NCBI GenBank assembly: GCA_009777255.1
Contig: WRMG01000002.1
Span: 2,105 to 66,104 of the forward strand
Direction of reading: 5' to 3'
Source: Oscillospiraceae bacterium
Lineage (GTDB): Bacteria > Bacillota > Clostridia > Oscillospirales > UBA929
Length of the DNA stretch: 64,000 bases
The position numbers and the translations under genes are program-made. Under the pieces are notes generated by a model that saw only the letters and a program-made list of their open reading frames with translations, did no database searches and was not told the origin of the DNA. Positions 23,653 through 61,053 of the stretch are shown here, in pieces. Position 1 is the stretch's first letter, and every line of letters starts with the position of its first letter.

Positions 23653-26600
23653 TTATTTTTTCACGGTTACTTTGCATTTATCGGTCTTGCCGCTTGCTGT
23701 TCTTACGGTGATCGTCGCGGTTCCCGGCCCGACCGCCGTTATTCTGCCGTTTTCATCGACCGTCACGACTTTTGTGTTGCTTGATTTCCAGCTCACCGCT
23801 TTTTCGGCGTTTTCCGGCGCTATTGTATATGCCAGCACCGATTCATCGCCAACCGTCATTTGCAGGGTCTTTATGTCAAACCTGACTCTTGAGGCGGGGG
23901 TTGACACATTGACAATACATTTCGCCGTTACTCCGGTGAGATCACACACGGCGGTTATTACCGCGGCTCCGTTTCCAACCGCCGTCACCGAACCGTTCGG
24001 GCCGACCCTTGCCACGTTTTCGTCCGACGACACCCACGTAACCCCGCGCCCTGCCGCTCTTGAGGGTTGATATTTGACATTAATCGAAGATGATTTGCCG
24101 GGCGCGAGCGACAGTGTGTTTTTGTTCAGAGTGATTGCTGTGGCGCCGCTTGAGTTGGTAACGGTCACTGAACATGACGCGCTTAATTTTGTGTTGCTTA
24201 CCGTTAGCTTGATAGTCGCCTTACCTGATTTGACGCCGGTTACCAAGCCGTTTTCATCAACAGTCGCGACGGCGGGATTTGACGACGACCATTTGAACGC
24301 CGCGGGGTCTATATTCGTGATGTCGAAGTAGGGCAGCAGCAGCAGCGACCCATTTTCGGCGACAGACGCCGACGAGCGGAGCTTAACGGATTTGGGGACG
24401 GCCGGGGCTTTTGCCTGTTTCCCGACTTTCACCCCCGCTTTTGTTGTTTTTGTGCCGTCGCTTGATGTGATCGTGACTTCGGCGTCGCCTTCGGCGACAG
24501 GCATTGCCATGCCGGAAGAGTCTATAATGAGATTGCCGTCGCTGCTTGAGAACGTCGCCGTTGCGGCGTCGATACCGGCTGCCTGGGCGGCTTTGGTCAC
24601 TTCAGGGATGTCAAAGGCCAACGCCGGTGAGAATAGACTTCTGCCGCCTATGATGCCGATGGATGCGCCCTCAAAACCTGGAATTGAAGTAATATAAACA
24701 TCCATCCATCTAGTGTTTGATATGTTCGTTATTCTAACAGCCTGCGGCGTTGTTGTAAATGGATAAGTAGTGGACGTTACAGACGGGGGAACGAGGTTTA
24801 TTTCAGTACTGCCGGGATTAAGGGCATATGTTATATTTGCCGAGAGATCGTCTGTGCCAAGGAACAACTCCGCGACCGCGAGTACATTGGGATGAGAAGC
24901 CAGATCCACAACACTTTCTTCCGACGCTAGGTTGACCGTTGGGTAGTCACGAACCGTCACATTAAAGTCAACAGCTGCTTTGTCATGTGATATTCTAAGG
25001 ATGCATGTACCAGGCCCTATAATCTCAAGCCTTCTTGGTGTTTCTGTTGTCCACCCCAAAACATTATTGCCTACAATAAGCACGCTTCCCTCAGTCCCAG
25101 TAAAGATAGCGTTTAATTCATTGAGTGTAAACCCTAAGTTCGTTATCATGTACGTCGACAGAGCCGAACTGAAGGCTGTAAAATCACTGTATGGCCCGCC
25201 GTTTCTTGGCAGAACGACCTCCGGAGGAGTCACTATAGTATCCGCCGTAATTGTAAGCACATAGTTGGGAGGCAGCGACGGCACAATCTGGTCTTGCAGT
25301 GTTTCAGGCTGAGGATTAGTTGTTCCGTAATTGAACCCGTCATTAATCCTGTATTTGGCTTGAACGCTGAATGAGAGAACAGTAGGATTAGCGGCAGTTG
25401 GGTTTATATTCGCCACCATGGCAGACCACAATCTGCCAAACTGATTGCCTAAAAGGTTGGGAATAGCACCTTTTTCCTCGTTTGCCCCATTGATATATGT
25501 CCACGCGGTTATGGTAAACTCATCCAGCGGGCTGGTCGATGATTCGACCTGTTTGTATTCATAACCCCCTGTATACGAGTATGTGAGAAAAATACCGGAG
25601 ACAGACGCTGTGCGAAAATCATCGTATTGGGATTTGGTCATTGTGCGTTCATACGGCGGAGAAAGAGAAATCGTTGGAGCAAGCGCTTTAATCCATACAT
25701 AGAGCGTATTGTTGCCTGTCAGGTCTGCGGATTTTACTACCAGATGTTCATTGGGATTCGGGCTGCCGGCTCTTGTCAGTTCTCTTCCGTTTACATCGCA
25801 AATGATTTGTTCGCCGGCATTTACCTCATCATAATCCACCTGATCGTTTATACCGGCGTTCCGCAGCTTCGTAAGAACTCCGTTTTCCTTAATTTGCAGA
25901 CCGGAAAGCTCAACGTCAATCAAGGGATTAACCTCATATCCTCCGCCCGGCAAGGCGGTGAAAAGCGGAACATCCTGACCGTACCATCTGCCTTCAAGGT
26001 TTTCGCCTGTAAGCTCCCATCCGCTCGGATAAGCCGGCACTTTCGGAACAACGGCATACTTAACACGCCCGTAGTTCACCCCGGTTATCCTTCCGTTGTC
26101 ATAACTGGCCAACTGACGGGTTTCATCCGCGTCATATGTATAATCAGCTTTAGACGGAATCGGTATCCACAGCATATCGGCAGATGTAAGTCCGGTCGCT
26201 TCCGCTCTGACAATAAATTCACTCTGGTCGAACATTTGCCGGACGCGATTATTGCTGTAATTTGGTGATGGCGCGATATAATTGGTCCCGCTGTTGTTGC
26301 CCTCGTAAAATCTCACGCCGGATATGCCGCGCGGCGCCGAAATCAGGGTTATGCTGGCGATTATATCATCATCCGCATTGGTACGCAGCGTGATTGTTGA
26401 CGTGCCGATCCCCAGAGTCGCAATATCGGGTATCTCGGTTGACGGGAGACTGATCGCCCTGACATTATTGCCGCTTCCATCCCTAAAGAGTATGGGGTCA
26501 TTATCACTTGAGGTAACACTCCAGTAATACCGCTCAGGCTCTAATGTGCCGGGCTGCGGTATAATCGTCAGATAATTACTGTAAACCGCGGTTCTGTTTT

Positions 26601-29600
26601 CAATAACAGGGCGGCGCACGGTAAGATCAACACTAATGTTGTTTATTCTCACAGTGGTCGTCGCGGAACTGAGATGTCTGCCATTAGCGTCGAGCATATT
26701 AACGGTGATAATGGTATATGGCGTGGCCGTCGGATCCGCGGAAGAATCGACAGTGACATACAGTATGTCATTGCGGATATACGCCTGACTGATGACCTCT
26801 TTATCGTAGTCTATCAAGAATCTGCGCCCGCTGAGCGGCGGTATATAAATTACCTCCACTTCACGGGTACTGCCGGGGAACAACTGGAAATCAACGGGAT
26901 TCAGGAAAATATCATTTTCATTATCATATACCCATACATTTATGGTCGCGGGCGAACCGGCTGCCCCCGGCGCCGTAACGGAGATAATTGCGGGCGTTGT
27001 ACTCCTGCTCGCTCCCGCCGTGACAACGCCGGTTCTCGGGTCAACTACGGCAACCGAAGGATCAGAGCTGGACCATGTTAGGTTTGACGCGCCGGCCGGA
27101 AGCACTGTTAAGTATTGTGAATCTCTCAAGTTAACTATTTCACCGGCTTTAAGAAATACATCCTTTTGCCTGAACTCCAAGCGCGTGGCCGTAACGACGG
27201 CGCTGACAGTAACCCTCAGGGCATACGATCTCCCGCGCGGGATGTTATGCCTGATGTTCAGCGTAAACGACCCCGCGTTGAGCGCGGTTATAGTTATTTC
27301 ATTTGTCTCCTTATTATGTACCCAGCCTCCAAACCCGCGGTTACCCGACTCACTGACGGTTATGTTCAGCTTGGCAACATCGGCGGCGCTCATAAACGAC
27401 CCGTCGCTCAGCGTAACCACCAGTCTGACTGTAATTGTCGCTCCGGCGGCAAGGGTAAGCGGGCTAATCGGATCTGTTTCAAATCTGCTGATGCTCGCCT
27501 CGTTCGGATCGGGCTTAGGCTCATTCTCCGGATCGCCCAAATACTTTCGTATAGCGTCAATCACTTCCTGAATCGAACTGTACTGGCGAAGCTCCCAAAG
27601 GTACTGCGCCATGGCCAGCTTCTGCGCGTTAGAGTAATTGACATAGGGGTTAGCCCCTGTTTCAAAATCCAGAACGGCCGCGTTGGCGGCGGTTTCTATA
27701 ATTTTCAGCAATGCCGCGGCATCTCTTGATTTGTTAATTTGGTTCAGAAGATTAGACTCGTCCTGAAGCCGCTTTTTAACCGCGTTATCAAACGCCGTCT
27801 TAACCGCCGCCGCCGTGGCGAACCCTGTTCCGCGAGCCTTCAGCACCTCACTCGCCACCCAATACTTGCCCTCAGGCGAGAGCGCGTTATACGCGCTGCT
27901 GCCGGAGGAGTCGATTCCGAGTTCGGCGGAGAACGTCTTGTTTTCCAGCACGCCGGAAAGCTGGTCTATGGTAACGGCGCGGTTCAGGGCAAAAAGCCCT
28001 TGGTTGGCTCCGGTGGCAAGCCCAAGCGGGTTATGCGAATTCAGTATCATGCGCTGCGCTTCGGCCCCTGTATAAACGAACCCGTGAACCCCATGAAAAA
28101 CTCCGTTGTCAAAATTGCTCTGAAGTATCTTCTTTTGCTCTTCCGTCGGCACCGCCAGCGACAGAACGGCATTAAGGAGAGGGCCGGAATTTGAAAGCAT
28201 ACTTACTCTGAAAGCCGGCGCGGAATATAATCTTGTCTCCTCTGTGGGAGAGCGTTCCACAACAGCTGAGGCGCGGGCATTGAGAATTGCCCCTGTCCTC
28301 GCTGTGGGAGGGCGTTCCGCCTGACTTAGGTTTATACTCACGATTTGAAGATTCTCAGTCAGCTCTGTCTGATTGTCGCTCCAGTTGATAAATAGGGACT
28401 CTTCAAACTGACCGACTATATCGGATGAGGTTGCGCTTCCGTTCACGGCGCCGGGATTGTACTTAACGGGAAGGTATATAATAATCCCTAATTGATCGCC
28501 GCCGCTGGGATCGGTCACAACGGGCACGGTAAAGGTCGCGGGAATATTAGCGTTCCCCGCGCCTACCGAGGTAACCGACGGCGACATCTTGGAATTTTCA
28601 AAGCCATGCGGAGCGGGAATAAAGAAACCGACCCAGTATCCCAGATTATCGCCGGGTCCTTTTGGATGCGCGGTTAACTGAACCCGCCCTGATACGGCCT
28701 GAGTTATATTTATCTCGTCAGCCGAGCGGCCCTCTCTCATATTGCTGTAAAGCGCGTATGGCAGAGGCTCATAATTAGGCAGCAGCCTTACTCTCAGCCC
28801 CGGCGTGTTCACACGGTCAATAAGATTTGGAGTGTTTGCCTGAGGCCCGCGCCTGACGCTCTCGGTAAAGTTACCAAAGGTGACGGTGGCGTTTTCCGCC
28901 GGAAGCTGAGCGGTCCTTAAAACAGCGGAGTGGTTCATGCCGACGGTAAAGAAGTCAGGCTCCGTCCCGAACACTTCAATGATCGCGCCGTCATTGTTTA
29001 CGAGCAGATTGCGAACGTTGTTCGCGTAAGAAACCCGAACATTAGGCGCGGAAATCTCAAGGTTCTCCACCGATGTATAGTTGGTGATGAACCTGAAAGG
29101 AAGCACGGCGGAATCCCATGTGGGATTTGCGCCCGTACCGCCGCGTATATTGAACACCGCGTTTTGACCGGCGCCGCTTACGCGCGCGTTTATTACTCTG
29201 CCCTCATTAAGATTAAGCATACAATTGCTGCCGCGTATATTGAGTTCGTCAAGAACAACACCGTTAAGATTCACCACGGAGTATTCCCGCGCGCCGTCAA
29301 GTATGTTAAGGGTAAGCGAGCCCCCTCCCGGCAGCGAGCTGCCCGCAAGCGAGCCGCCTGTCAGTGTAAAGCCGGATACGGCATTGATGGTATGTACCCG
29401 CGAATGGTCGGTAATCGCGATGCGCGTGTTGCCGTTACTCATCCTGTCGGTGCCCATAACCCAGAAATCGCGGTGATTAACCAACGCGTTATCAGTCAGG
29501 GCAGGGTCGTCGTCCTCATAGGCCTCCATGCGCCCCGTCTTCCATTCAAGGCTTGAGTTGTCGTGGCCGGCTTCGGCAAAGCTCGCTATATATATGCTGT

Positions 29601-30567
29601 CGTTAATATTGGAGTTTGATATGGTGACAGTATCAGGGCCGCCGCCGCGTATGACAATACGGCCGTTGATTTCACAGTTGGAGATTACAATAGAGCTGTC
29701 AACACCGTCGCCGATTATAAGGTCGCCGTTCAGTTTAAGATGCTGCAGCGTTAATTTGCCGGATCTGTTTACCAGCAGATTACCTTTAATGAAAACACCG
29801 TCGGCCGGAGGCGTGAAGGTAGTCGTATAATTAACATTGTCATTGCCGGTATACGTCGGCTCGTTCATATAAACATACGGGAACATATTGTCCAGCAGGA
29901 GAACGGCCTCGGCGCGCGTTATATTTGAGCGCGGAGCTATCGTAAGAGGTTCGGGACCGCGGCCCGTCATCAGCCCTCTGGCAAGGAACTCATCAACAAA
30001 CGCTATCGCGTAATCCGAAACCTGGCTGCCGTCGGGAAACTGCTTCGCCGTGTCCCCTGTTCCGTTCCCCATCCCCAGCGCTTTGCCCAGCAGCGTGAAA
30101 GCGTCCTGCCGCGTCATGTTATTATTGGGTAGCATCCGTCCGTCGGCGCCTTCGGCAATCCCCATATTGATAGCTATGGCAATCTCGTCATAATACCAGG
30201 CGTTCGGGTTCAAATCCGGGAAACGCGAAGCGTATTTGTAATCAGGAACAAGCCCCCCCATAGCGCGAACCAGCATAACTATCAGCTCAGCTCTTGTAAT
30301 CGGGGCGGACGGGTTACTGTTAAAATTTGTGTGAAGAGTACCGGCTTCTCCGTTCTTCTCCTGGAACATGCCATATTCATACCAGCGGTCAGCCGCTCCC
30401 GCCGCCCAAGAGGGCATACTCGGGAAATATGTCGAAGTCGTTCTTAGTTTATAATAGCCTTTATCCCAATTCAACGCGGCGGCGCTTTCCGGCGCGTAAA
30501 CGGCCGGAACAAGACCGGACAGCATAATGCCAACCAGCAATAACGACAAAAATCTTTTCGTTCGCAT
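23653..30567 (-). CDS. Giant cell-wall-anchored protein (N-terminal SLH repeats, beta-helix region, C-terminal Big_2 Ig-like repeats)
   Basis: Signal peptide, SLH-like repeats near the N-terminus, parallel beta-helix-like repeats (ISNCEINGRIVIRGGG...), and at least four Big_2-type repeats at the C-terminus (WSSSNPAVATVDENGLVTGVKSGKATI). ATG at 30567 is preferred because it lies 7 nt after GGAGG. Confidence 0.8.
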   Translation of the reverse strand: MRTKRFLSLLLVGIMLSGLVPAVYAPESAAALNWDKGYYKLRTTSTYFPSMPSWAAGAADRWYEYGMFQEKNGEAGTLHTNFNSNPSAPITRAELIVMLVRAMGGLVPDYKYASRFPDLNPNAWYYDEIAIAINMGIAEGADGRMLPNNNMTRQDAFTLLGKALGMGNGTGDTAKQFPDGSQVSDYAIAFVDEFLARGLMTGRGPEPLTIAPRSNITRAEAVLLLDNMFPYVYMNEPTYTGNDNVNYTTTFTPPADGVFIKGNLLVNRSGKLTLQHLKLNGDLIIGDGVDSSIVISNCEINGRIVIRGGGPDTVTISNSNINDSIYIASFAEAGHDNSSLEWKTGRMEAYEDDDPALTDNALVNHRDFWVMGTDRMSNGNTRIAITDHSRVHTINAVSGFTLTGGSLAGSSLPGGGSLTLNILDGAREYSVVNLNGVVLDELNIRGSNCMLNLNEGRVINARVSGAGQNAVFNIRGGTGANPTWDSAVLPFRFITNYTSVENLEISAPNVRVSYANNVRNLLVNNDGAIIEVFGTEPDFFTVGMNHSAVLRTAQLPAENATVTFGNFTESVRRGPQANTPNLIDRVNTPGLRVRLLPNYEPLPYALYSNMREGRSADEINITQAVSGRVQLTAHPKGPGDNLGYWVGFFIPAPHGFENSKMSPSVTSVGAGNANIPATFTVPVVTDPSGGDQLGIIIYLPVKYNPGAVNGSATSSDIVGQFEESLFINWSDNQTELTENLQIVSINLSQAERPPTARTGAILNARASAVVERSPTEETRLYSAPAFRVSMLSNSGPLLNAVLSLAVPTEEQKKILQSNFDNGVFHGVHGFVYTGAEAQRMILNSHNPLGLATGANQGLFALNRAVTIDQLSGVLENKTFSAELGIDSSGSSAYNALSPEGKYWVASEVLKARGTGFATAAAVKTAFDNAVKKRLQDESNLLNQINKSRDAAALLKIIETAANAAVLDFETGANPYVNYSNAQKLAMAQYLWELRQYSSIQEVIDAIRKYLGDPENEPKPDPNEASISRFETDPISPLTLAAGATITVRLVVTLSDGSFMSAADVAKLNITVSESGNRGFGGWVHNKETNEITITALNAGSFTLNIRHNIPRGRSYALRVTVSAVVTATRLEFRQKDVFLKAGEIVNLRDSQYLTVLPAGASNLTWSSSDPSVAVVDPRTGVVTAGASRSTTPAIISVTAPGAAGSPATINVWVYDNENDIFLNPVDFQLFPGSTREVEVIYIPPLSGRRFLIDYDKEVISQAYIRNDILYVTVDSSADPTATPYTIITVNMLDANGRHLSSATTTVRINNISVDLTVRRPVIENRTAVYSNYLTIIPQPGTLEPERYYWSVTSSDNDPILFRDGSGNNVRAISLPSTEIPDIATLGIGTSTITLRTNADDDIIASITLISAPRGISGVRFYEGNNSGTNYIAPSPNYSNNRVRQMFDQSEFIVRAEATGLTSADMLWIPIPSKADYTYDADETRQLASYDNGRITGVNYGRVKYAVVPKVPAYPSGWELTGENLEGRWYGQDVPLFTALPGGGYEVNPLIDVELSGLQIKENGVLTKLRNAGINDQVDYDEVNAGEQIICDVNGRELTRAGSPNPNEHLVVKSADLTGNNTLYVWIKALAPTISLSPPYERTMTKSQYDDFRTASVSGIFLTYSYTGGYEYKQVESSTSPLDEFTITAWTYINGANEEKGAIPNLLGNQFGRLWSAMVANINPTAANPTVLSFSVQAKYRINDGFNYGTTNPQPETLQDQIVPSLPPNYVLTITADTIVTPPEVVLPRNGGPYSDFTAFSSALSTYMITNLGFTLNELNAIFTGTEGSVLIVGNNVLGWTTETPRRLEIIGPGTCILRISHDKAAVDFNVTVRDYPTVNLASEESVVDLASHPNVLAVAELFLGTDDLSANITYALNPGSTEINLVPPSVTSTTYPFTTTPQAVRITNISNTRWMDVYITSIPGFEGASIGIIGGRSLFSPALAFDIPEVTKAAQAAGIDAATATFSSSDGNLIIDSSGMAMPVAEGDAEVTITSSDGTKTTKAGVKVGKQAKAPAVPKSVKLRSSASVAENGSLLLLPYFDITNIDPAAFKWSSSNPAVATVDENGLVTGVKSGKATIKLTVSNTKLSASCSVTVTNSSGATAITLNKNTLSLAPGKSSSINVKYQPSRAAGRGVTWVSSDENVARVGPNGSVTAVGNGAAVITAVCDLTGVTAKCIVNVSTPASRVRFDIKTLQMTVGDESVLAYTIAPENAEKAVSWKSSNTKVVTVDENGRITAVGPGTATITVRTASGKTDKCKVTVKK

Positions 30568-30611
30568 GAACAAACCTCCCCAACTCTGCTTCCAAAAGAG
30601 CTTATTATCTG

Positions 30612-50986: not shown

Positions 50987-51955
50987 ATGTTAATTACTTT
51001 AGAAGCGGCGTCAAAACTGATTGCTGACGGTAAGACGCTCCATATTGCGGGAACAGAGGCAATGCTCCGCAAGCTGCCGAAGGGAAATTGGATCGGCGGC
51101 TCTACCGAATATTTCATGACAAAGGACGGCGGCAGTATTTCAGGCGAGCTGCTGTTTGTTACGGAACTGCCGTATGAAACCGTTAAAATCAAATCATACG
51201 ACGCTCAGGAAATATCTCAAATAGCGGAGGACGCCTTTGACAGCGGGTTTTCAATCGTTATTATCCCCTTCGACAGCGCGGTTCACAAGGAGTACGCTCA
51301 AAACGCGCCGTCTTACGGCAAAATGTTTCTGAACGAAATTGTCGGATGGATAGCGGGCGTAAACCTCGGCATACCCGGCCAAACCCCAATAGCCGTCAAC
51401 GGGCTTAACGCGGAAGCGTTTGCCGATAAAGCCGTAGCCCTGCATATGCAAACGCCGGAGAACATAACGGTATCCATTAACATTATCAATATATTTGAAC
51501 AGGATATGGCTTCGCCTGTGCTTGAGTTTGAGGAGGAGGGCTTCCATGTCGCAAAATGCTTTGCGGACGGAAAAGAAACCGTATTCTCGGACTACTTAAC
51601 GGAAAACGCCGTAAACACAAAGCTCCCGCTTGTCGGCGACTACGCGGGCCACAGGGTCAATGTTTCCATCAAGTCGGTTGAAGACGGCGTTGTTAATCTC
51701 TACGCCCCTGTTTTCAACGGGATCAAATACCGCATGGCAAAGGATATAAAGGATTACGCCGCGGCGTTTCGTGCCCGCCTGAAAGGGATTAATGACGACG
51801 GCGCTGTGTTTTCCTGCAATTGCATTTTGAATTTCCTCTACGGCGAACTGGAGGGCAGAAGTATTGAAGCCTTTGCCGGCCCCATTACATTCGGGGAAAT
51901 CGCGTATCAGCTCGTCAATCAAACATTAGTATATGTAACCGAAAAGGAGAGATAA
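50987..51955 (+). CDS. FIST_C-like sensory protein (short paralog)
   Basis: Strong RBS AAGGAGGG. FIST_C-type tail (FSCNCILNFLYGELEG...PITFGEIAYQLVNQTLVYV). Confidence 0.5.
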   Translation: MLITLEAASKLIADGKTLHIAGTEAMLRKLPKGNWIGGSTEYFMTKDGGSISGELLFVTELPYETVKIKSYDAQEISQIAEDAFDSGFSIVIIPFDSAVHKEYAQNAPSYGKMFLNEIVGWIAGVNLGIPGQTPIAVNGLNAEAFADKAVALHMQTPENITVSINIINIFEQDMASPVLEFEEEGFHVAKCFADGKETVFSDYLTENAVNTKLPLVGDYAGHRVNVSIKSVEDGVVNLYAPVFNGIKYRMAKDIKDYAAAFRARLKGINDDGAVFSCNCILNFLYGELEGRSIEAFAGPITFGEIAYQLVNQTLVYVTEKER

Positions 51956-51958
51956 ACT

Positions 51959-53139
51959 ATGATCAAGTCATTTATGATCAACATTACCGAAATCGACGAC
52001 ACGGAGTTTGCGCTGGAGGAACTCGAAAGCCAATTGTCCGCTCAGGAACTGCTAAAAAACACCGTGGGTATAGCGACCGTAAACACCGAGTTTCTGAACA
52101 GCGGCGTATATACGGGAGTAGTAAACGCGCTTCCGTTTCCGGTTCTGGGCATGTCCGCCTATTCGCAGAACGCGAACGGAAATACGGGAATATTCCTGTT
52201 TTCCATAATGGTTTTAACCTCCGATACCTGCGAGTTTGCCCACGGCGTAAGCGAGGTCATTCCCGAAGCGGGCGACGTAACCGCTCTCACGCAGGATCTG
52301 TATAAGAAAATCAGCGTCTCCCTCGAAAGCCGCGCCAAAGTCGCGTTTTTATATGCGCCGTTTCTGCCTCAGCAATGCCCTTATAATTACTTGCAGTCAC
52401 TGTCGGAGCTGGATGCGTCGCTGCCGGTATTCGGTTCCATCGCCTCGTGCGAGGTGACGAAAATGGGAGTCGAAGAACGCAGCCTTTACGGCGGCGCCGC
52501 TTATAAAGACCGGCTGGTGATGCTGCTTGCCGCGGGGGATGTATCGCCCCGGTTTTACATCGGCTCCATAACAAAAGAGTCTGTTATAATGCCTGATATA
52601 GGCGAAGTAACCGCCGCTAAGGATAACATCGTCATGGAGGTAAACAATACCAAGGTTGACGTCGCCTTTAAGAAAATAGGCTTTGAAGACGGCGCGATTA
52701 AAGACGCCGGAGCGATAACGCTTGTCTTTATTGCGGAAGAGAAGGACAGCGGCGGCAATGTCATTTCCGCCACCGCGAGATCTCTTTATGTGGTAGACGA
52801 CGGTATCGCCGCCTTCGGCGGACGGATGGCTGTCGGTTCAACCTTGTCGGTCGCCGCTACCACGAAAGAGGTTATCCTGGAAACAGGGAGAGATGTCCTG
52901 TCACAAATAAAGTCTGAACACCATGACAAGGCGGTGCTGTTATACTCGTGCTTGGGCCGGCAAATCGCCCTGCTGGGCGAGCCCATGGCGGAATACGATT
53001 TTATCGGCGAAGAGTTTCAGGGCAGCGGCTTTACTTATGTTATGGCGGCGTCCGGCGGCGAGCTGTGCCCCACATCGTTAACGGAAGCCAAAGCGTACAA
53101 CAGCGAGCATAACCAAACACTGATTGCCTGTGTCTTATA

Positions 53140-53140
<1 letters not shown>
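51959..53140 (+). CDS. FIST-domain sensory protein (NosP-like size and architecture)
   Basis: 393 aa with a FIST_C-type tail ([14 protein letters not shown]...ASGGELCP...[11 protein letters not shown]). It overlaps the kinase start by 1 nt. Confidence 0.55.
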
Positions 53141-55788
<2,648 letters not shown>

Positions 55789-56586: not shown

Positions 56587-57405
56587 ATGACATCGACCTT
56601 TACCGTCGGCGACCTCATGATCGACTGTGCAGACGCCGAACGCACCCGCGATTTTTATGCCATCCTTATGAGCTGGGAGAAAACAGTTTCTTTTGGCTGT
56701 CCCGCGCTTAAAACTGACAACGGCATGACGGTTCTGTTTGCGAAAACCGATATTCCGTATGTGCCGCCCGTATGGCCCGAAGAGCCCGGCAAGCAGCAAA
56801 AGCAAATGCACTTGGATTTTACAGTTGACGATTTGCCGTCTGCCGTGGAGAAAGCCATTGGCCTCGGCGCGGCCAAACCCGCCGCGCAATACGGCGGCGA
56901 CTGTCATGTCACAATGCTGGATCCGGACGGGCGCCCGTTCTGCCTGTGTAAGCGGCCGCAAGAGAAAAACGAGTTTGTTTTATACTATGAAAAGATGGGC
57001 TATGGCGCAATTCCAGACGTTTCCATTAATATTGATTGCAAATATTCGGAAACGCTGCGCGGGTTTTACGCACAATTAACAGGCTGGGATCAGGGTTTTC
57101 ATTGTACGGCGTTAATTGACAGCAATAAAATGGTCGTCCACTTTATGGGATGTGACGGCGACTTCGATTATATTCCGCCCGTATGGCCCGAGGAGCCCGG
57201 CAGGCAGCAAAAGCAAATGCACTTCAATTTCCAAGTGGACGATTTGCCGTCTGCCGTGGAGAAAGCCCTTGGCCTCGGCGCGGCCAAACCCGCCGCGCAA
57301 TACGGCGGCGGGCATTTTGTCACGCTGCTTGATACTGAAGGGCATCCGTTTTGCCTGTGCGCTGACGGTGAGATTATCCCGCAATCAACCTCTGCCAATC
57401 AATAA
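56587..57405 (+). CDS. Two-module VOC (glyoxalase/bleomycin-resistance fold) protein
   Basis: Two tandem modules, each ending PPVWPEEPG(K/R)QQKQMH..DDLPSAVEKA.GLGAAKPAAQYGG...PFCLC. Confidence 0.7.
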   Translation: MTSTFTVGDLMIDCADAERTRDFYAILMSWEKTVSFGCPALKTDNGMTVLFAKTDIPYVPPVWPEEPGKQQKQMHLDFTVDDLPSAVEKAIGLGAAKPAAQYGGDCHVTMLDPDGRPFCLCKRPQEKNEFVLYYEKMGYGAIPDVSINIDCKYSETLRGFYAQLTGWDQGFHCTALIDSNKMVVHFMGCDGDFDYIPPVWPEEPGRQQKQMHFNFQVDDLPSAVEKALGLGAAKPAAQYGGGHFVTLLDTEGHPFCLCADGEIIPQSTSANQ

Positions 57406-58237
57406 ACATCAGCTGGTCGCCGCCGGTCACATCCCAGCATTCCCGCGCGAACGGCGCGAAAACATTGTCCGGTTTCGGGGGCGCGGCATATCCGATTTTT
57501 GACTGGAAAATGGTGGAAATGTCCAAGTCGTCAATCGGCACGGCGCATATGCCGTCTATATCTCCGAGATAGCTCGTGCCCTCCGGCCGGATAACCATAA
57601 CGGTTTGCATATCAAGTCCCTCATAAGGCAGATTGAATCGTTTATAGAGATTAAGGTTCGGCATTTTCTTTCCTCTGGGGCTAAGTGTATCGCCTTGCGC
57701 GTCAGCCTTACGGATGCCATACAAAACCTCCATTATATTCGCGGCGTTTTCAACAAGCGGTATCCCGCCGATTGAAAAGCGGAAAAAGAAATCTGTACTG
57801 CCCGTGGATTTCAGCGGGGATGTTATTTCCGGCAAAACAAAGGGCTTCTCCCACACCCGCGTATCCGCGAGCGCGCTGATTTCATATGCCAGCCTGCGCA
57901 AGTCCTCCGCTAAAACGGCTATGCTTTTGTTGATCGACATATCGCTGATGACCGGATTGACGCGCAGCATCTCAATCATGGTGTTGACGGCCAAAAACCC
58001 TGTCATCAACGCAAAATCAGCAACACCCTTAAAATCATCCGCGCCCGCGTTTTCAAACTTTGCCTTTGCCGTGTAGTCAAACAGTCTGTTGGCAAGCGTC
58101 CGCGCCTCCTCCGCGACGACCGCGTAGCCGCGCCCGAAGTGACCGGATCTTCCCGCCTCCTGCGCGAACCCCAGGGATAATGTCCACGCCTTCTGCGCGT
58201 ATTGCTCGCACAGCCATATTTTTTTCTCACTTGTCAT
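57374..58237 (-). CDS. Fusion protein: MCP signalling hairpin-tip segment plus CheW-like domain
   Basis: N-terminus QEAGRSGHFGRGYAVVAEEARTLANR compares to the MCP tip EAARAGEQGRGFAVVAxEVRxLAxRS. The C-terminal half aligns by eye with CheW (FFFRFSIGGIPLVENAANIMEVL; VMVIRPEG...ICAVPIDDLDI; LMFIDWQRLI). ATG at 58237 lies 8 nt after GGAGG. Confidence 0.6.
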   Translation of the reverse strand: MTSEKKIWLCEQYAQKAWTLSLGFAQEAGRSGHFGRGYAVVAEEARTLANRLFDYTAKAKFENAGADDFKGVADFALMTGFLAVNTMIEMLRVNPVISDMSINKSIAVLAEDLRRLAYEISALADTRVWEKPFVLPEITSPLKSTGSTDFFFRFSIGGIPLVENAANIMEVLYGIRKADAQGDTLSPRGKKMPNLNLYKRFNLPYEGLDMQTVMVIRPEGTSYLGDIDGICAVPIDDLDISTIFQSKIGYAAPPKPDNVFAPFARECWDVTGGDQLMFIDWQRLIAG

Positions 58238-58769
58238 TGTTAAGACCTCCATAATAATATTTGGGAATACGGTAGTTAAAATATTTCGCAAGCGTCGGCC
58301 GCAGCTTTTCCAGCGCCCTGCGATGATGAGAAAGTATCGTGTTTAGATTGATCCCGTGACGTTCGCTGATCTCCCGAAACGTAAATTCGCCGTAATACCG
58401 CTCGCGGATAACTATTTGCTCAATTTGCTTGAGCGTTTGCAGGGATTGCAGAATCAGCGCGGTGTCCTCAGCGTTTTCAATTTCGCGTGCAAAGCTGTCC
58501 TCGTCAATCAACGGCGCGGTCAAATCAAAGCTCACCGTGATCCCGCTGTCAATATCGTTTCGGTGAAACACTTTATAAGCCGCTCGAATACACGCCACGG
58601 ACATATACCCGAAGTTATATTGATCGGTATTGAACCCGGGCGATTTCATCACGTCAAGAAACGCCTGATTTACAATCTCATCCGCCGCGTCCGTGATATT
58701 ATGCCTTGTATAAAACTTCTTCCTGATATATGAAACCAGCTCCGCTCTCAGGCTCTCAAGGTTATCCAA
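58227..58769 (-). CDS. Sigma-70 family (ECF-like) RNA polymerase sigma factor
   Basis: Region 2 (IVNQAFLDVMKS...) and region 4 HTH (FTFREISERHGINLNTILSHHRRALEKLR). TTG start after GGGGGAGG. Confidence 0.8.
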   Translation of the reverse strand: MDNLESLRAELVSYIRKKFYTRHNITDAADEIVNQAFLDVMKSPGFNTDQYNFGYMSVACIRAAYKVFHRNDIDSGITVSFDLTAPLIDEDSFAREIENAEDTALILQSLQTLKQIEQIVIRERYYGEFTFREISERHGINLNTILSHHRRALEKLRPTLAKYFNYRIPKYYYGGLNNDK

Positions 58770-59062
58770 TCAACCTCCCCCTTGTCTTTGTCTGATAGGC
58801 CCATCACTGTATAAAGGCGTTTAAGTGTCCGTTTTATTGCAATCTTACAAAGAATTCCGCAAGGCATATCGCGTCAAGAAACGCCCGTTTTACAATCCCG
58901 CCCGCCGCGCCCGTGGTATTATGCCTTGTGTAAAACTTCTTCCTGATATATGAAACCAGCTTCGCCCTCAGGTTCTCAAGGTTATCCAATCAACCTCCCC
59001 CTCGCCTTTTTGTCTGACGGCCCGTCACTGTATAAAGGCGTTTTGAGTTCGGTTTTATTGCA
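58652..59062. repeat. Tandem direct duplication (about 190 bp x2) of the sigma gene 5' end plus its upstream region
   Basis: 58652-58841 and 58872-59062 align at an offset of 220 nt with scattered mismatches. Both copies contain the GGGGGAGG RBS and the TTG start. Confidence 0.85.
58834..58989 (-). pseudogene. Truncated duplicate of the sigma factor N-terminus (51-codon ORF)
   Basis: It translates to MDNLENLRAKLVSYIRKKFYTRHNTTGAAGGIVKRAFLDA..., compared with MDNLESLRAELVSYIRKKFYTRHNITDAADEIVNQAFLDV for the full gene. It ends at a TAA inside the upstream region of copy 1. Confidence 0.5.
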
Positions 59063-59094: not shown

Positions 59095-59097
59095 CAG

Positions 59098-59126
59098 AAA
59101 AAAACCTCCCGACAGGGAGATTTTTT
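59098..59126 (-). terminator. Terminator of the heptad-repeat gene
   Basis: Minus strand shows the hairpin tctccc-tgtc-gggagg followed by T7. The plus strand has a symmetrical T6. Confidence 0.5.
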
Positions 59127-59144: not shown

Positions 59145-59726
59145 TTACCTGAGCGGGACGTTTACTATGTGTTCCACGCGGTCGGCCCAGTCAATCAAGG
59201 CGTTTGTTCCGCTGCGGACTTCCTCCAGAGAATCCTTAATGTCGGCTATGTCGTCTTTCATATCGACAATTTCCCGTTTAATGACGGTGACGTCTTGCTT
59301 GAGGCCCGCGACGTCTTGTTTTAGGACGGTAATTTCTTGCTTAATGCCAACAATGTCCTGTTTAAGGCCCGCGACATCTTGTTTAACATCAGCGACGTCT
59401 TGCTTAATATCGGCAACCTCTTGCTTAAGGACTTCGACATCTTGCTTAACATCAGCGACATCTTGCTTAACATCAGCGACGTCCTGTTTGAGGACCGTGA
59501 CATCTTGCTTAACATCGGCGACGTCCTGTTTAACATCAGCGACATCTTGTTTAACATCAGCGACATCTTGTTTAACATCAGCGACGTCTTGCTTAAGGCC
59601 CGCGACGTCTTGCCTAATATCGGTGACATCTTGTTTAATGTCGGCGACGTCGGTTTCCAGTCTTTCCTGCCCTTGTTTTAAGCCCTTTAATTCTGTAAGT
59701 ATCTGAACCAGAATCTCATTTTCCAC
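59145..59726 (-). CDS. Coiled-coil protein built from 20 consecutive heptads (consensus DVADVKQ)
   Basis: 193 aa. Residues 26-165 form an uninterrupted heptad array with V/I/L at positions 2 and 5. GTG start. The gene has its own promoter and terminator. Confidence 0.65.
   Translation of the reverse strand: MENEILVQILTELKGLKQGQERLETDVADIKQDVTDIRQDVAGLKQDVADVKQDVADVKQDVADVKQDVADVKQDVTVLKQDVADVKQDVADVKQDVEVLKQEVADIKQDVADVKQDVAGLKQDIVGIKQEITVLKQDVAGLKQDVTVIKREIVDMKDDIADIKDSLEEVRSGTNALIDWADRVEHIVNVPLR
59232..59651 (-). repeat. 21-bp tandem repeat array (coding)
   Basis: Twenty in-frame 21-nt units. Several adjacent units are near-identical (gacgt(c/t)gctgatgttaa(a/g)caa type). Confidence 0.85.
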
Positions 59727-59910: not shown

Positions 59911-61053
59911 TTATACCCTTAAATCGACGTGCTGAACGGTGCCGGCGCGCCCGTCCTCATACAGGAAAAAGCCGGTGCGCCGGATATAGCCGCCGGGGTC
60001 GTTTAAGCTGCCCAGAGCGTAGTCCGTTTCGACGCTGCCCAGATAGATGGCGCCGATACCGACCTCGCCCAGAGCGACAAGCGAATGTGTGCCGTCGTCG
60101 TTTACAAGCCACACCCGCAGCTTGTCGAAGATGGCGTCGTTTTCGTCGATCCAGCCGTTGCCGTCGCCGTCATGCGCGCTCAGCTCGGCAAAGCCGTTGC
60201 CGGTAAGCGCGCCGAACAGCTCGCTGCCGTCGTTTATCACGCCGTCGCCGTTTATGTCATACGCCAAAAAGCCGCTGCCATAAGCGAGGCGCGAAATCTG
60301 ATCGGATTCGCCGCCGCCGTCCAGGTCAAACTCGAACCTGGTATCGCCCAGCAAGGCCGATGGTATATCGAGATTGATGACCAGCGGGTCCTTAAACTGT
60401 ATCTCGTTTACCGAGGTTAAGCTGAATACCGCCTCCAGGTCAAGCTTCTCGTAAAACGACTGCGACATATTTAATTGTAAATCTATATCAATACGCCGCC
60501 CGTCAGAGGTCCTGACCTGCGCAGTTGTGGAAAAAGACATGCTGTTTTCTATGGATAATTCGCGGGATGCTTTTATATAGCCGCTTGTGCTGACCACCCT
60601 GAACATCTGCTGGGGCGCCTCCTGACGGCGGGACATTCCGCCGTTTATGCGTTCCCAGAGCATGGACAGGTTATCCCCGCCATGCTGTTCGTCCTGCCGG
60701 TCCTCGATACGGAGCCGGCTTTTCAGTGAGTCGATCAAGCCGCTGAACTGGGATGAGCCTGAGTACTTTTGCAGCGCCTCTAAAAACGCCCGGATAAGCT
60801 GCGCTTTCAAATCGTTTTGCCAGTCGCCGAAATCGCCGCCTGTGCCGGCGGGTTTCGCGGGCGAGTAGAGGCCCTTGACATCGGAATCCCTTTCGCCGAG
60901 GGTCAGGGTGTCCTCCAACAGCCCCGATTCCTCAAGCTCCTCGAGCGTCATCTCGGCCACGGACACTGTCCTTAGATACGCGGCCGACGAGGATTCCGTT
61001 CGCTTGTAGTCGCTGCCGCCCTGCATGGCGACAACGGCCGATTCAATTTTCAT
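59911..61053 (-). CDS. Hypothetical protein with EF-hand-like Asp/Gly Ca-binding repeats
   Basis: C-terminal DLDGGGESD, YDINGDGVINDGSELFG and HDGDGNGWIDENDAIFDKLRVW. No signal peptide seen. RBS GGAGGTG. Confidence 0.55.
   Translation of the reverse strand: MKIESAVVAMQGGSDYKRTESSSAAYLRTVSVAEMTLEELEESGLLEDTLTLGERDSDVKGLYSPAKPAGTGGDFGDWQNDLKAQLIRAFLEALQKYSGSSQFSGLIDSLKSRLRIEDRQDEQHGGDNLSMLWERINGGMSRRQEAPQQMFRVVSTSGYIKASRELSIENSMSFSTTAQVRTSDGRRIDIDLQLNMSQSFYEKLDLEAVFSLTSVNEIQFKDPLVINLDIPSALLGDTRFEFDLDGGGESDQISRLAYGSGFLAYDINGDGVINDGSELFGALTGNGFAELSAHDGDGNGWIDENDAIFDKLRVWLVNDDGTHSLVALGEVGIGAIYLGSVETDYALGSLNDPGGYIRRTGFFLYEDGRAGTVQHVDLRV

Follow-up and report, generated by a model that had tools for sequence, protein, structure and literature searches.

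A conserved gene pair encoding an ECF-like sigma factor and a soluble protein of two chemoreceptor tips and a CheW-like domain in an Oscillospiraceae bacterium

A stretch of 64,000 nucleotides (nt) from an Oscillospiraceae bacterium (contig WRMG01000002.1 of assembly GCA_009777255.1, positions 2,105 to 66,104), hereafter called the window, carries a cassette in which the gene of an extracytoplasmic function (ECF)-like sigma factor is translationally coupled to the gene of a soluble protein, here called the partner. The partner is neither a methyl-accepting chemotaxis protein (MCP) nor an ordinary CheW, and is best described as two receptor tips plus a CheW-like domain in one soluble chain. The pairing of the two genes is deeply conserved, and a conserved promoter stands upstream of the sigma gene and nowhere else. 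On balance we think it probable that the sigma factor has a dedicated regulator which binds it, most likely as an anti-sigma factor, and that the two genes form an autonomous cassette under positive autoregulation.

Both genes lie on the minus strand. The sigma gene (58227-58769, TTG start, TGA stop at 58229-58227) was defined by the list of open reading frames (ORFs) and by profile matches and encodes 180 amino acids (aa), while the partner gene (57374-58237, ATG at 58237) encodes 287 aa. The two ORFs overlap by 11 nt; this overlap had been described in the initial annotation of the window, with which the ORF coordinates and the stop codon agree, and the peptides quoted there (QEAGRSGHFGRGYAVVAEEARTLANR, FFFRFSIGGIPLVENAANIMEVL, VMVIRPEG...ICAVPIDDLDI and LMFIDWQRLI) all occur in the partner translation. 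The ribosome-binding site of the partner gene, a GGAGG read from the sequence at 58250-58246 on the minus strand, falls within the sigma codons Tyr-Gly-Gly, and the partner ATG follows 8 nt further on. Because this site sits inside the terminal codons of the sigma gene, the two genes are translationally coupled. The protein collection, whose members are given below by P numbers, contains an exact copy of the partner (P0001, source ENA, from one contig of 3034 bp) and a protein that matches the sigma factor at 100% identity (P0061, source JGI).

The sigma factor matched the NCBIfam model TIGR02937 (sigma70-ECF) over residues 5-157 with 57.9 bits (cutoff 42.9), and the Pfam models Sigma70_r4 and r4_2 with 43.4 and 34.9 bits, respectively. 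Pfam Sigma70_r2 gave no match to it at E <= 1. The N-terminal half is strongly conserved and helical, and region 4 aligns with the ECF sigma factors SigK (4nqw) and RpoE (2q1z) in PDB. The AlphaFold2 model was moderate (predicted local distance difference test, pLDDT, 76; predicted template modelling score, pTM, 0.56), and its best Foldseek matches, holoenzymes of the Mycobacterium tuberculosis ECF factor SigH, were not significant (E 0.085). Homologues of the sigma factor form 172 clusters at 90% identity, and the best 120 of the 172 span 139-198 aa. The protein fits the two-domain profile of ECF factors (sigma2 plus sigma4, no regions 1.1 and 3) and is filed here as ECF-like with a divergent region 2.

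The partner begins with the hairpin tip of a chemoreceptor. This first hairpin (aa 3-61; 58055-58231, minus strand) was located by MCPsignal, by profile matches in PDB and by mapping on Tsr, and has the canonical turn and C-terminal arm, EAgRsGhfGRGYAVVAeEaRtLA. Pfam MCPsignal matched the partner with 35.1 bits (gathering score 34.6) over residues 13-54 only, which correspond to 42 of the 172 profile positions. The same profile was significant in all 36 relatives of the family alignment A1, which is also the basis of the family profile and of the Pfam counts given below. Against PDB, the family profile found the tips of Tsr, Aer and TM14 at E 6e-9 to 1e-6, and CheW chains at E 4e-4 to 0.18. 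When hairpin 1 was placed on Tsr, the positions E385, R388, G390, G393, R394, G395, F396 (replaced by Y), A397-A400, E402, R404, L406 and A407 were conserved, and the N-terminal arm was diverged at the positions of F373, N376 and I377.

A second, degenerate hairpin follows directly (aa 66-123; 57869-58042, minus strand). It was located by a second hidden Markov model alignment to Tsr, which sets partner residues ~70-89 on the N-terminal arm of the Tsr tip (IDGIAFQTNILALNAAVE), and by hhalign, in which residues 1-64 matched residues 65-128 with a probability of 92.4% and E 5e-7. This hairpin keeps the N-terminal arm pattern A-F-x-T-x-x-L-x-x-N-A-x-x-E and the Tsr positions A372, F373, T375, L378, N381, E385 and R388, with N85 and E89 invariant. 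It retains part of the C-terminal arm, has lost the glycine turn and has a loop 6 aa longer. The partner therefore contains an internal tandem duplication of the receptor tip. The initial annotation had read a canonical tip almost at the N terminus, and this part stood, including the MCPsignal match on which it depended; the single tip that it had assumed has to be replaced by two tandem hairpins.

No transmembrane segment was found in the partner (the highest Kyte-Doolittle average over 19 residues is 1.36), and Pfam gave no HAMP match. Methylation helices are absent as well, and the helix arms measure about 24-30 residues, so that these earlier readings of the protein, with MCPsignal restricted to 42 of its 172 positions, were borne out. 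With its short arms, without methylation helices or a sensor domain, and with two hairpins per chain, the partner cannot be a methylation-adapting receptor. Soluble MCPs share with it the cytoplasmic location and the canonical hairpin tip, which in real receptors binds CheW and CheA, but they differ from it in having methylation helices and a sensor domain, and in forming homodimers instead of carrying two hairpins in each chain. The AlphaFold model of the partner had a pLDDT of 86 and a pTM of 0.86, and its helical part resembles single-chain bundles of four or five helices in Foldseek. Judged from homology and from these bundle-like matches, hairpin 1 probably folds back on itself.

The C-terminal half of the partner (aa 142-287; 57377-57814, minus strand) is CheW-like, as indicated by Foldseek, by a domain profile and by Pfam in relatives. 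In the predicted model this half has the twin beta-barrel fold of CheW and of the P5 domain of CheA: Foldseek matched it to 4jpb_A (2.6e-6), 2ch4_A (6.2e-6), 6s1k_C (4.3e-5) and 2ho9 (2.9e-4) with probability 1.0, and 9a72_B was also among these CheA-P5/CheW matches. The domain profile found PDB CheW chains at E 3e-4 to 5e-2 (2qdl 3e-4; Thermotoga maritima CheW 4e-3), with which the motif LRG-x-x-iPvIdl of the partner aligns. The Pfam CheW profile (PF01584) matched 25 of the 36 relatives (best E 3.6e-8) and gave no match to the partner of the window itself at E <= 1. Thus the CheW likeness proposed earlier for this half holds for the fold and for most relatives, and not for the Pfam profile on the window protein. 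R188, which is kept in at least 90% of the relatives, aligns with the Arg of the NLRG motif in the CheW proteins of T. maritima and Escherichia coli; in E. coli this is R62, which we take to be the residue needed for receptor coupling. The C terminus carries the invariant, family-specific motif RECWDxxGGxQxxFxDW, and C267 is the only highly conserved Cys of the partner.

CheW, CheV and CheA-P5 thus share with this half the fold and the motif LRG...P-V-I-D, including the position of the receptor-coupling Arg. The partner is unlike them in that it is not encoded together with cheA or receptors, is fused to tips, ends in the RECWD...DW motif and has a sigma factor gene as neighbor.

At 90% identity the partner family falls into 60 clusters, and about 75 clusters at 50% identity were found at E <= 1e-30. 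Most of the 50%-identity clusters listed are ~250-310 aa long with invariant residues at both ends, and the shorter ones are fragments. Genome matches were metagenome-assembled genomes (MAGs) of termite guts assigned to Defluviitaleaceae, Oscillospiraceae, Bacillota and Treponema. The 63 metagenome loci (given by L numbers) are JGI metagenome contigs, several of which share contig names with termite-gut MAG contigs; most loci are of termite-gut Defluviitaleaceae and Oscillospiraceae or of contigs binned as Treponema.

Adjacency was counted in the 46 non-redundant loci with enough upstream DNA. Directly upstream of the partner gene stands a full sigma gene in 37 of them and a sigma remnant in three, and neither was present in six. 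Where a full sigma gene is present (37 loci), the distance from sigma stop to partner start was -11 to +30 nt in 35, and the genes overlap in 24. The pairing is kept also in relatives of about 25-30% identity (L096, L099, L100, L102-104), and the distant members P0213, P0254, P0224 and P0285 have the sigma gene immediately upstream. This deep conservation answers the question raised by the initial annotation, whether the two genes stay neighbors in related genomes. Across loci the sigma factors are 60-82% identical, while the partners of the same loci are only 41-62% identical. The flanking genes are unlike between L001 and L002, the two loci with called genes, as would be expected of an autonomous cassette.

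Decayed forms of the cassette were also observed. In L007 and L029 a 32-aa sigma remnant is followed by a partner split into two ORFs, in L027 a 77-aa remnant stands ahead of an intact partner, and in L066 and L067 a deletion runs from sigma residue ~146 into the CheW-like part of the partner. These loci, together with a duplication in the window described below, suggest that the 5' end of the sigma gene is prone to recombination.

A 31-nt motif, TGCAATAA-N13-ACGCCTTTATA, precedes the sigma gene in almost every locus. In the window its proximal copy, TGCAATAA-N13-ACGCCTTTAT (58811-58841, minus strand), is placed ~40 nt ahead of the sigma start. L095, the locus of a fused sigma-module ORF whose sigma part is 43% identical, has the motif in full, and the -35 half of the motif is retained in the more distant loci L102 and L099. 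At the place expected for a -10 element with a spacer of 16-17 nt there is a conserved CGCC (CGCCTT in the window), and the TATA-like part of the motif lies farther from TTGCAA than a sigma-A promoter would allow; for these two reasons the motif resembles an ECF-type promoter. Two perfect copies stand in the window, versus 0 expected by chance. A scan with a 35-nt position weight matrix (PWM) returned these two sites only in the window and, in 474 kb of related loci, at most one site per locus, upstream of sigma. When 185,579 genomes were scanned strictly for the promoter, there were 17 matches, about the number estimated (not computed) for chance, and three of the 17, all of them self-promoters, were in termite-gut MAGs. 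A conserved promoter before the sigma gene is the usual mark of ECF autoregulation, which needs a brake. The promoter is probably used by this sigma factor, and the evidence points to positive autoregulation of the cassette.

The second copy in the window (59032-59062) belongs to a partial tandem duplicate (58868-59062, minus strand) of the promoter, the 5' untranslated region and sigma codons 1 to about 40. This duplicate forms a direct repeat with 58648-58841, at 84-90% identity and a spacing of 220-221 nt. It leaves a truncated sigma-like ORF (58834-58989, MDNLENLRAKLVSYIRKKFYTRHN...) and, upstream of the real gene, the second perfect promoter.

A short palindrome is seen just past the -10 region, at 58790-58810 in the window and at the equivalent place in many loci. 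Its forms include TGATGGgCCATCA, TGATGGgCCTATCA, TGACGGgCCGTCA, TGAAGGCCTTCA and GATAGgCTATC; the arms differ between loci, yet stay complementary to each other. The palindrome is missing from loci with leaders of 21-24 nt, and as RNA it is predicted to be weakly stable. It may act as an operator or as a 5' stem-loop.

The partner module also occurs in other architectures. P0239 joins sigma factor and module in one ORF of 455 aa behind the same promoter; a single contig (CAZUNC010000204.1) is the only known source of this ORF. P0274 and P0261 have an N-terminal AraC-type helix-turn-helix (HTH) domain followed by the module, and the gene of P0274 (L098) is flanked by a flagellin gene and a GGDEF gene. 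In P0224 and P0285 (L096 and L099) the module is followed by FliG_C (78 and 60 bits), and the sigma gene is still upstream in both. P0312 is a more canonical protein with MCPsignal and CheW, and no sigma gene adjoins it. These architectures mark the module as a portable domain with a regulatory role that is joined to transcription outputs, and the fusions to AraC HTH and FliG_C hint at a link to the motility apparatus.

We propose that translation of the ECF-type sigma factor is coupled to that of its own, dedicated regulator in the cytoplasm, which would be an exapted piece of a chemosensory array. The partner would bind the sigma factor, most likely as an anti-sigma factor, and would hold it inactive until an input signal releases it; the sign of the regulation would then be inhibition and not activation. 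Because the receptor tip is duplicated in tandem, one chain can imitate the tip of a receptor dimer. The two hairpins would pack into a four-helix bundle as a single-chain mimic of this tip, joined to the CheW-like domain. The proposal of a dedicated regulator, most likely an anti-sigma factor, is based on the stoichiometric co-translation and the deep synteny of the pair, on the faster evolution of the partner compared with the sigma factor, on the autoregulated promoter, which needs a brake, and on the repeated fusion of the module to DNA-binding outputs.

The cassette resembles the known modules RpoE-ChrR, SigK-RskA and SigW-RsiW, in which a small sigma2-sigma4 factor is likewise followed by a translationally coupled partner gene. 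As in ECF/anti-sigma modules generally, a conserved promoter stands before the sigma gene (autoregulation), the sigma factor is better conserved than its partner, and the surroundings vary. It differs from them in a partner that has no anti-sigma domain, zinc motif or transmembrane helix, and is built of chemoreceptor tips and a CheW-like domain. The pair would be a variation on the sigma/anti-sigma theme, with an unprecedented regulator.

Several observations weigh against our proposal. No known anti-sigma domain was found in the partner, for which Pfam and NCBIfam gave MCP matches only, and neither an HxxxCxxC zinc motif nor a class I ASD/ZAS family was found for it with these two databases. 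In six of the 46 loci the module stands by itself, with neither a sigma gene upstream nor the promoter motif, which means that it can occur alone. The PWM scan of the window and of the related loci returned nothing beyond self-promoters, and the regulon could be just the sigma-partner operon. The single ORF of P0239 could be an assembly error. In addition, DSSP of the partner model prints residues 3-61 as one unbroken helix.

A more specific version of the same explanation, which we consider possible and a good deal less probable, is that the module docks on or competes for the arrays of the host, namely CheA-P5/CheW rings or receptors encoded elsewhere, and that this decides whether the sigma factor is held or released. 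The assembly or signalling state of the array would then be read out as transcription, which would be a checkpoint comparable to FlgM/sigma-28. Many receptor-tip positions are kept in both hairpins, and the CheW-like domain keeps LRG-x-x-PvID with the Arg equivalent to CheW R62. FliG_C, another domain of the motility apparatus, is found in some relatives; the AraC-module gene adjoins a flagellin gene, and in L002 flagellin and FlaG lie about 3-5 kb from the pair. On the other hand, CheA, CheY, CheB and CheR were all missing when 45 ORFs of the window were scanned with Pfam, in accordance with what the initial annotation had said of the 64 kb, and the called genes next to the pair in L001 and L002 include no che genes either. 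The divergence of the hairpin 1 N-terminal arm at the Tsr positions F373/N376/I377 also argues against docking, and the pTM of 0.86 fits a closed unit whose CheW groove is filled by the protein's own bundle. We hold it similarly doubtful that a single-chain unit of receptor dimer tip plus CheW carries the sigma factor to arrays, so that array state is converted to transcription without a CheA-CheY phosphorelay.

Slightly less probable still, and in our opinion unlikely, is that the module is not the regulator of the sigma factor and is instead the main product which it expresses, for example as a dominant-negative cap that disturbs arrays or motility once the sigma factor has been turned on in another way. 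This would agree with promoter copies that, as far as detectable, drive only the sigma-module operon itself, with orphan modules that have no sigma gene, and with the dissimilarity of the module to known anti-sigma domains. But a positively autoregulated sigma factor without a brake would be locked on, and the fusions of the module, to the DNA-binding domain of AraC type and in one case to the sigma factor, fit an input domain better. Tight translational coupling moreover leads to a fixed stoichiometry, which is typical of binding partners.

That the 287-aa protein is a truncated or decaying MCP which stands beside an unrelated sigma gene by chance, as the NCBI label 'methyl-accepting chemotaxis protein' of P0037 and P0041 and the decayed cassette copies (L007/L029, L027, L066/L067) might suggest, is refuted by family conservation and synteny and is very improbable: the family has ~75 clusters at 50% identity, mostly of ~250-310 aa among those listed and with invariant residues at both ends, the adjacency of the genes holds for 37 of the 46 loci and extends to distant relatives, and the CheW-like half belongs to no MCP.

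Returning to the module as the regulator of the sigma factor, other known systems were compared. In P0239 and the AraC-module proteins the module would serve as a covalent regulatory domain, like the C-terminal extensions of ECF41/42-type sigma factors and like one-component regulators. Unlike these, the window has the two parts on different polypeptides, with a regulatory domain that derives from chemotaxis. FlgM/sigma-28, where the availability of the anti-sigma factor reports the state of a large motility machine, and PhyR-NepR-EcfG, where a partner-mimicking domain serves partner switching, are conceptual analogues only; they have no sequence or structural relationship to this pair, and the analogy is our reading.

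The pair appears to be absent from previous descriptions. NCBIfam has no model for the partner family. The main text of the 2021 paper on the reclassification of ECF sigma factors does not mention chemotaxis, CheW or MCP. A survey of CheW-like architectures reports rare fusions to CheC/R/X/Z, Hpt, REC and PAS, as well as full-length CheA fused to MCP domains, and mentions neither a protein of tip and CheW nor a sigma partner. Our literature search, with most subscription-journal papers outside its coverage, found no description of such a sigma/partner pair, so that the same statement made at first sight of the sequence was repeated within this limit.

The surroundings of the cassette are diverse. 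Downstream, a Glyoxalase_6 gene (124.5 bits in two matched stretches; 56587-57405, plus strand) converges on the partner gene, and the 3' ends of the two overlap by 32 nt. Directly upstream of the cassette, a protein of 193 aa (59145-59726, minus strand) consists nearly entirely of heptad repeats of DVADVKQ type (coiled coil) and matches generic coiled-coil profiles only; a terminator-like hairpin lies near 59095-59125, after its gene. The next protein, of 380 aa (59911-61053, minus strand), has no significant match in Pfam, NCBIfam or PADLOC (EF-hand_6 at E 0.3 only), and shows Asp-rich motifs resembling calcium-binding sites (DINGDGVINDGSELF, DGDGNGWIDENDAIF). A link of the sigma factor and the partner to defence systems was considered and rejected, as PADLOC gave no match for either protein.

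Three consecutive genes on the plus strand (50987-55788), possibly an operon, are separated by about 1.6 kb from position 57374, where the cassette has its 3' end, and encode a DUF6976 protein (410 bits), a FIST-domain protein and a hybrid histidine kinase with PAS, HisKA, HATPase and receiver domains. This trio is sensory and uncharacterised, and the kinase (53140-55788) has the sole receiver domain among the 45 ORFs scanned with Pfam. Elsewhere the window encodes a surface protein of 2306 aa with SLH and Big_2 domains (23653-30573, minus strand) and glycoside hydrolases of families GH94, GH9 and GH31. The surface protein and the GH genes are consistent with a host among the fibre-degrading gut Clostridia. 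The Mfd protein of the window is 61% identical to that of a Sporobacter termitidis MAG, by which the host resembles a relative of the Oscillospiraceae.

Few parts of bacterial signalling are as conserved and as well understood as chemoreceptor tips and CheW, which are seen as serving kinase control in arrays. Here such array parts form a compact soluble module, which is tied mostly to an ECF-like sigma factor and sometimes to an AraC domain or an added FliG_C. It means that database annotation can be corrected, because homologues are now labelled 'methyl-accepting chemotaxis protein' and the partner should not be filed as an MCP. If the module docks on arrays, it would represent a new output route for arrays and an anti-sigma mechanism by molecular mimicry of array parts, and through the relatives with FliG_C the flagellar motor would come under the same principle. 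Should the module bind the sigma factor and control it, it would be a new class of anti-sigma factor, and it would mean that array components can be exapted for gene regulation. The two genes with their one promoter would then offer a simple, testable system for information transfer through receptor tips and CheW, or for orthogonal switches.

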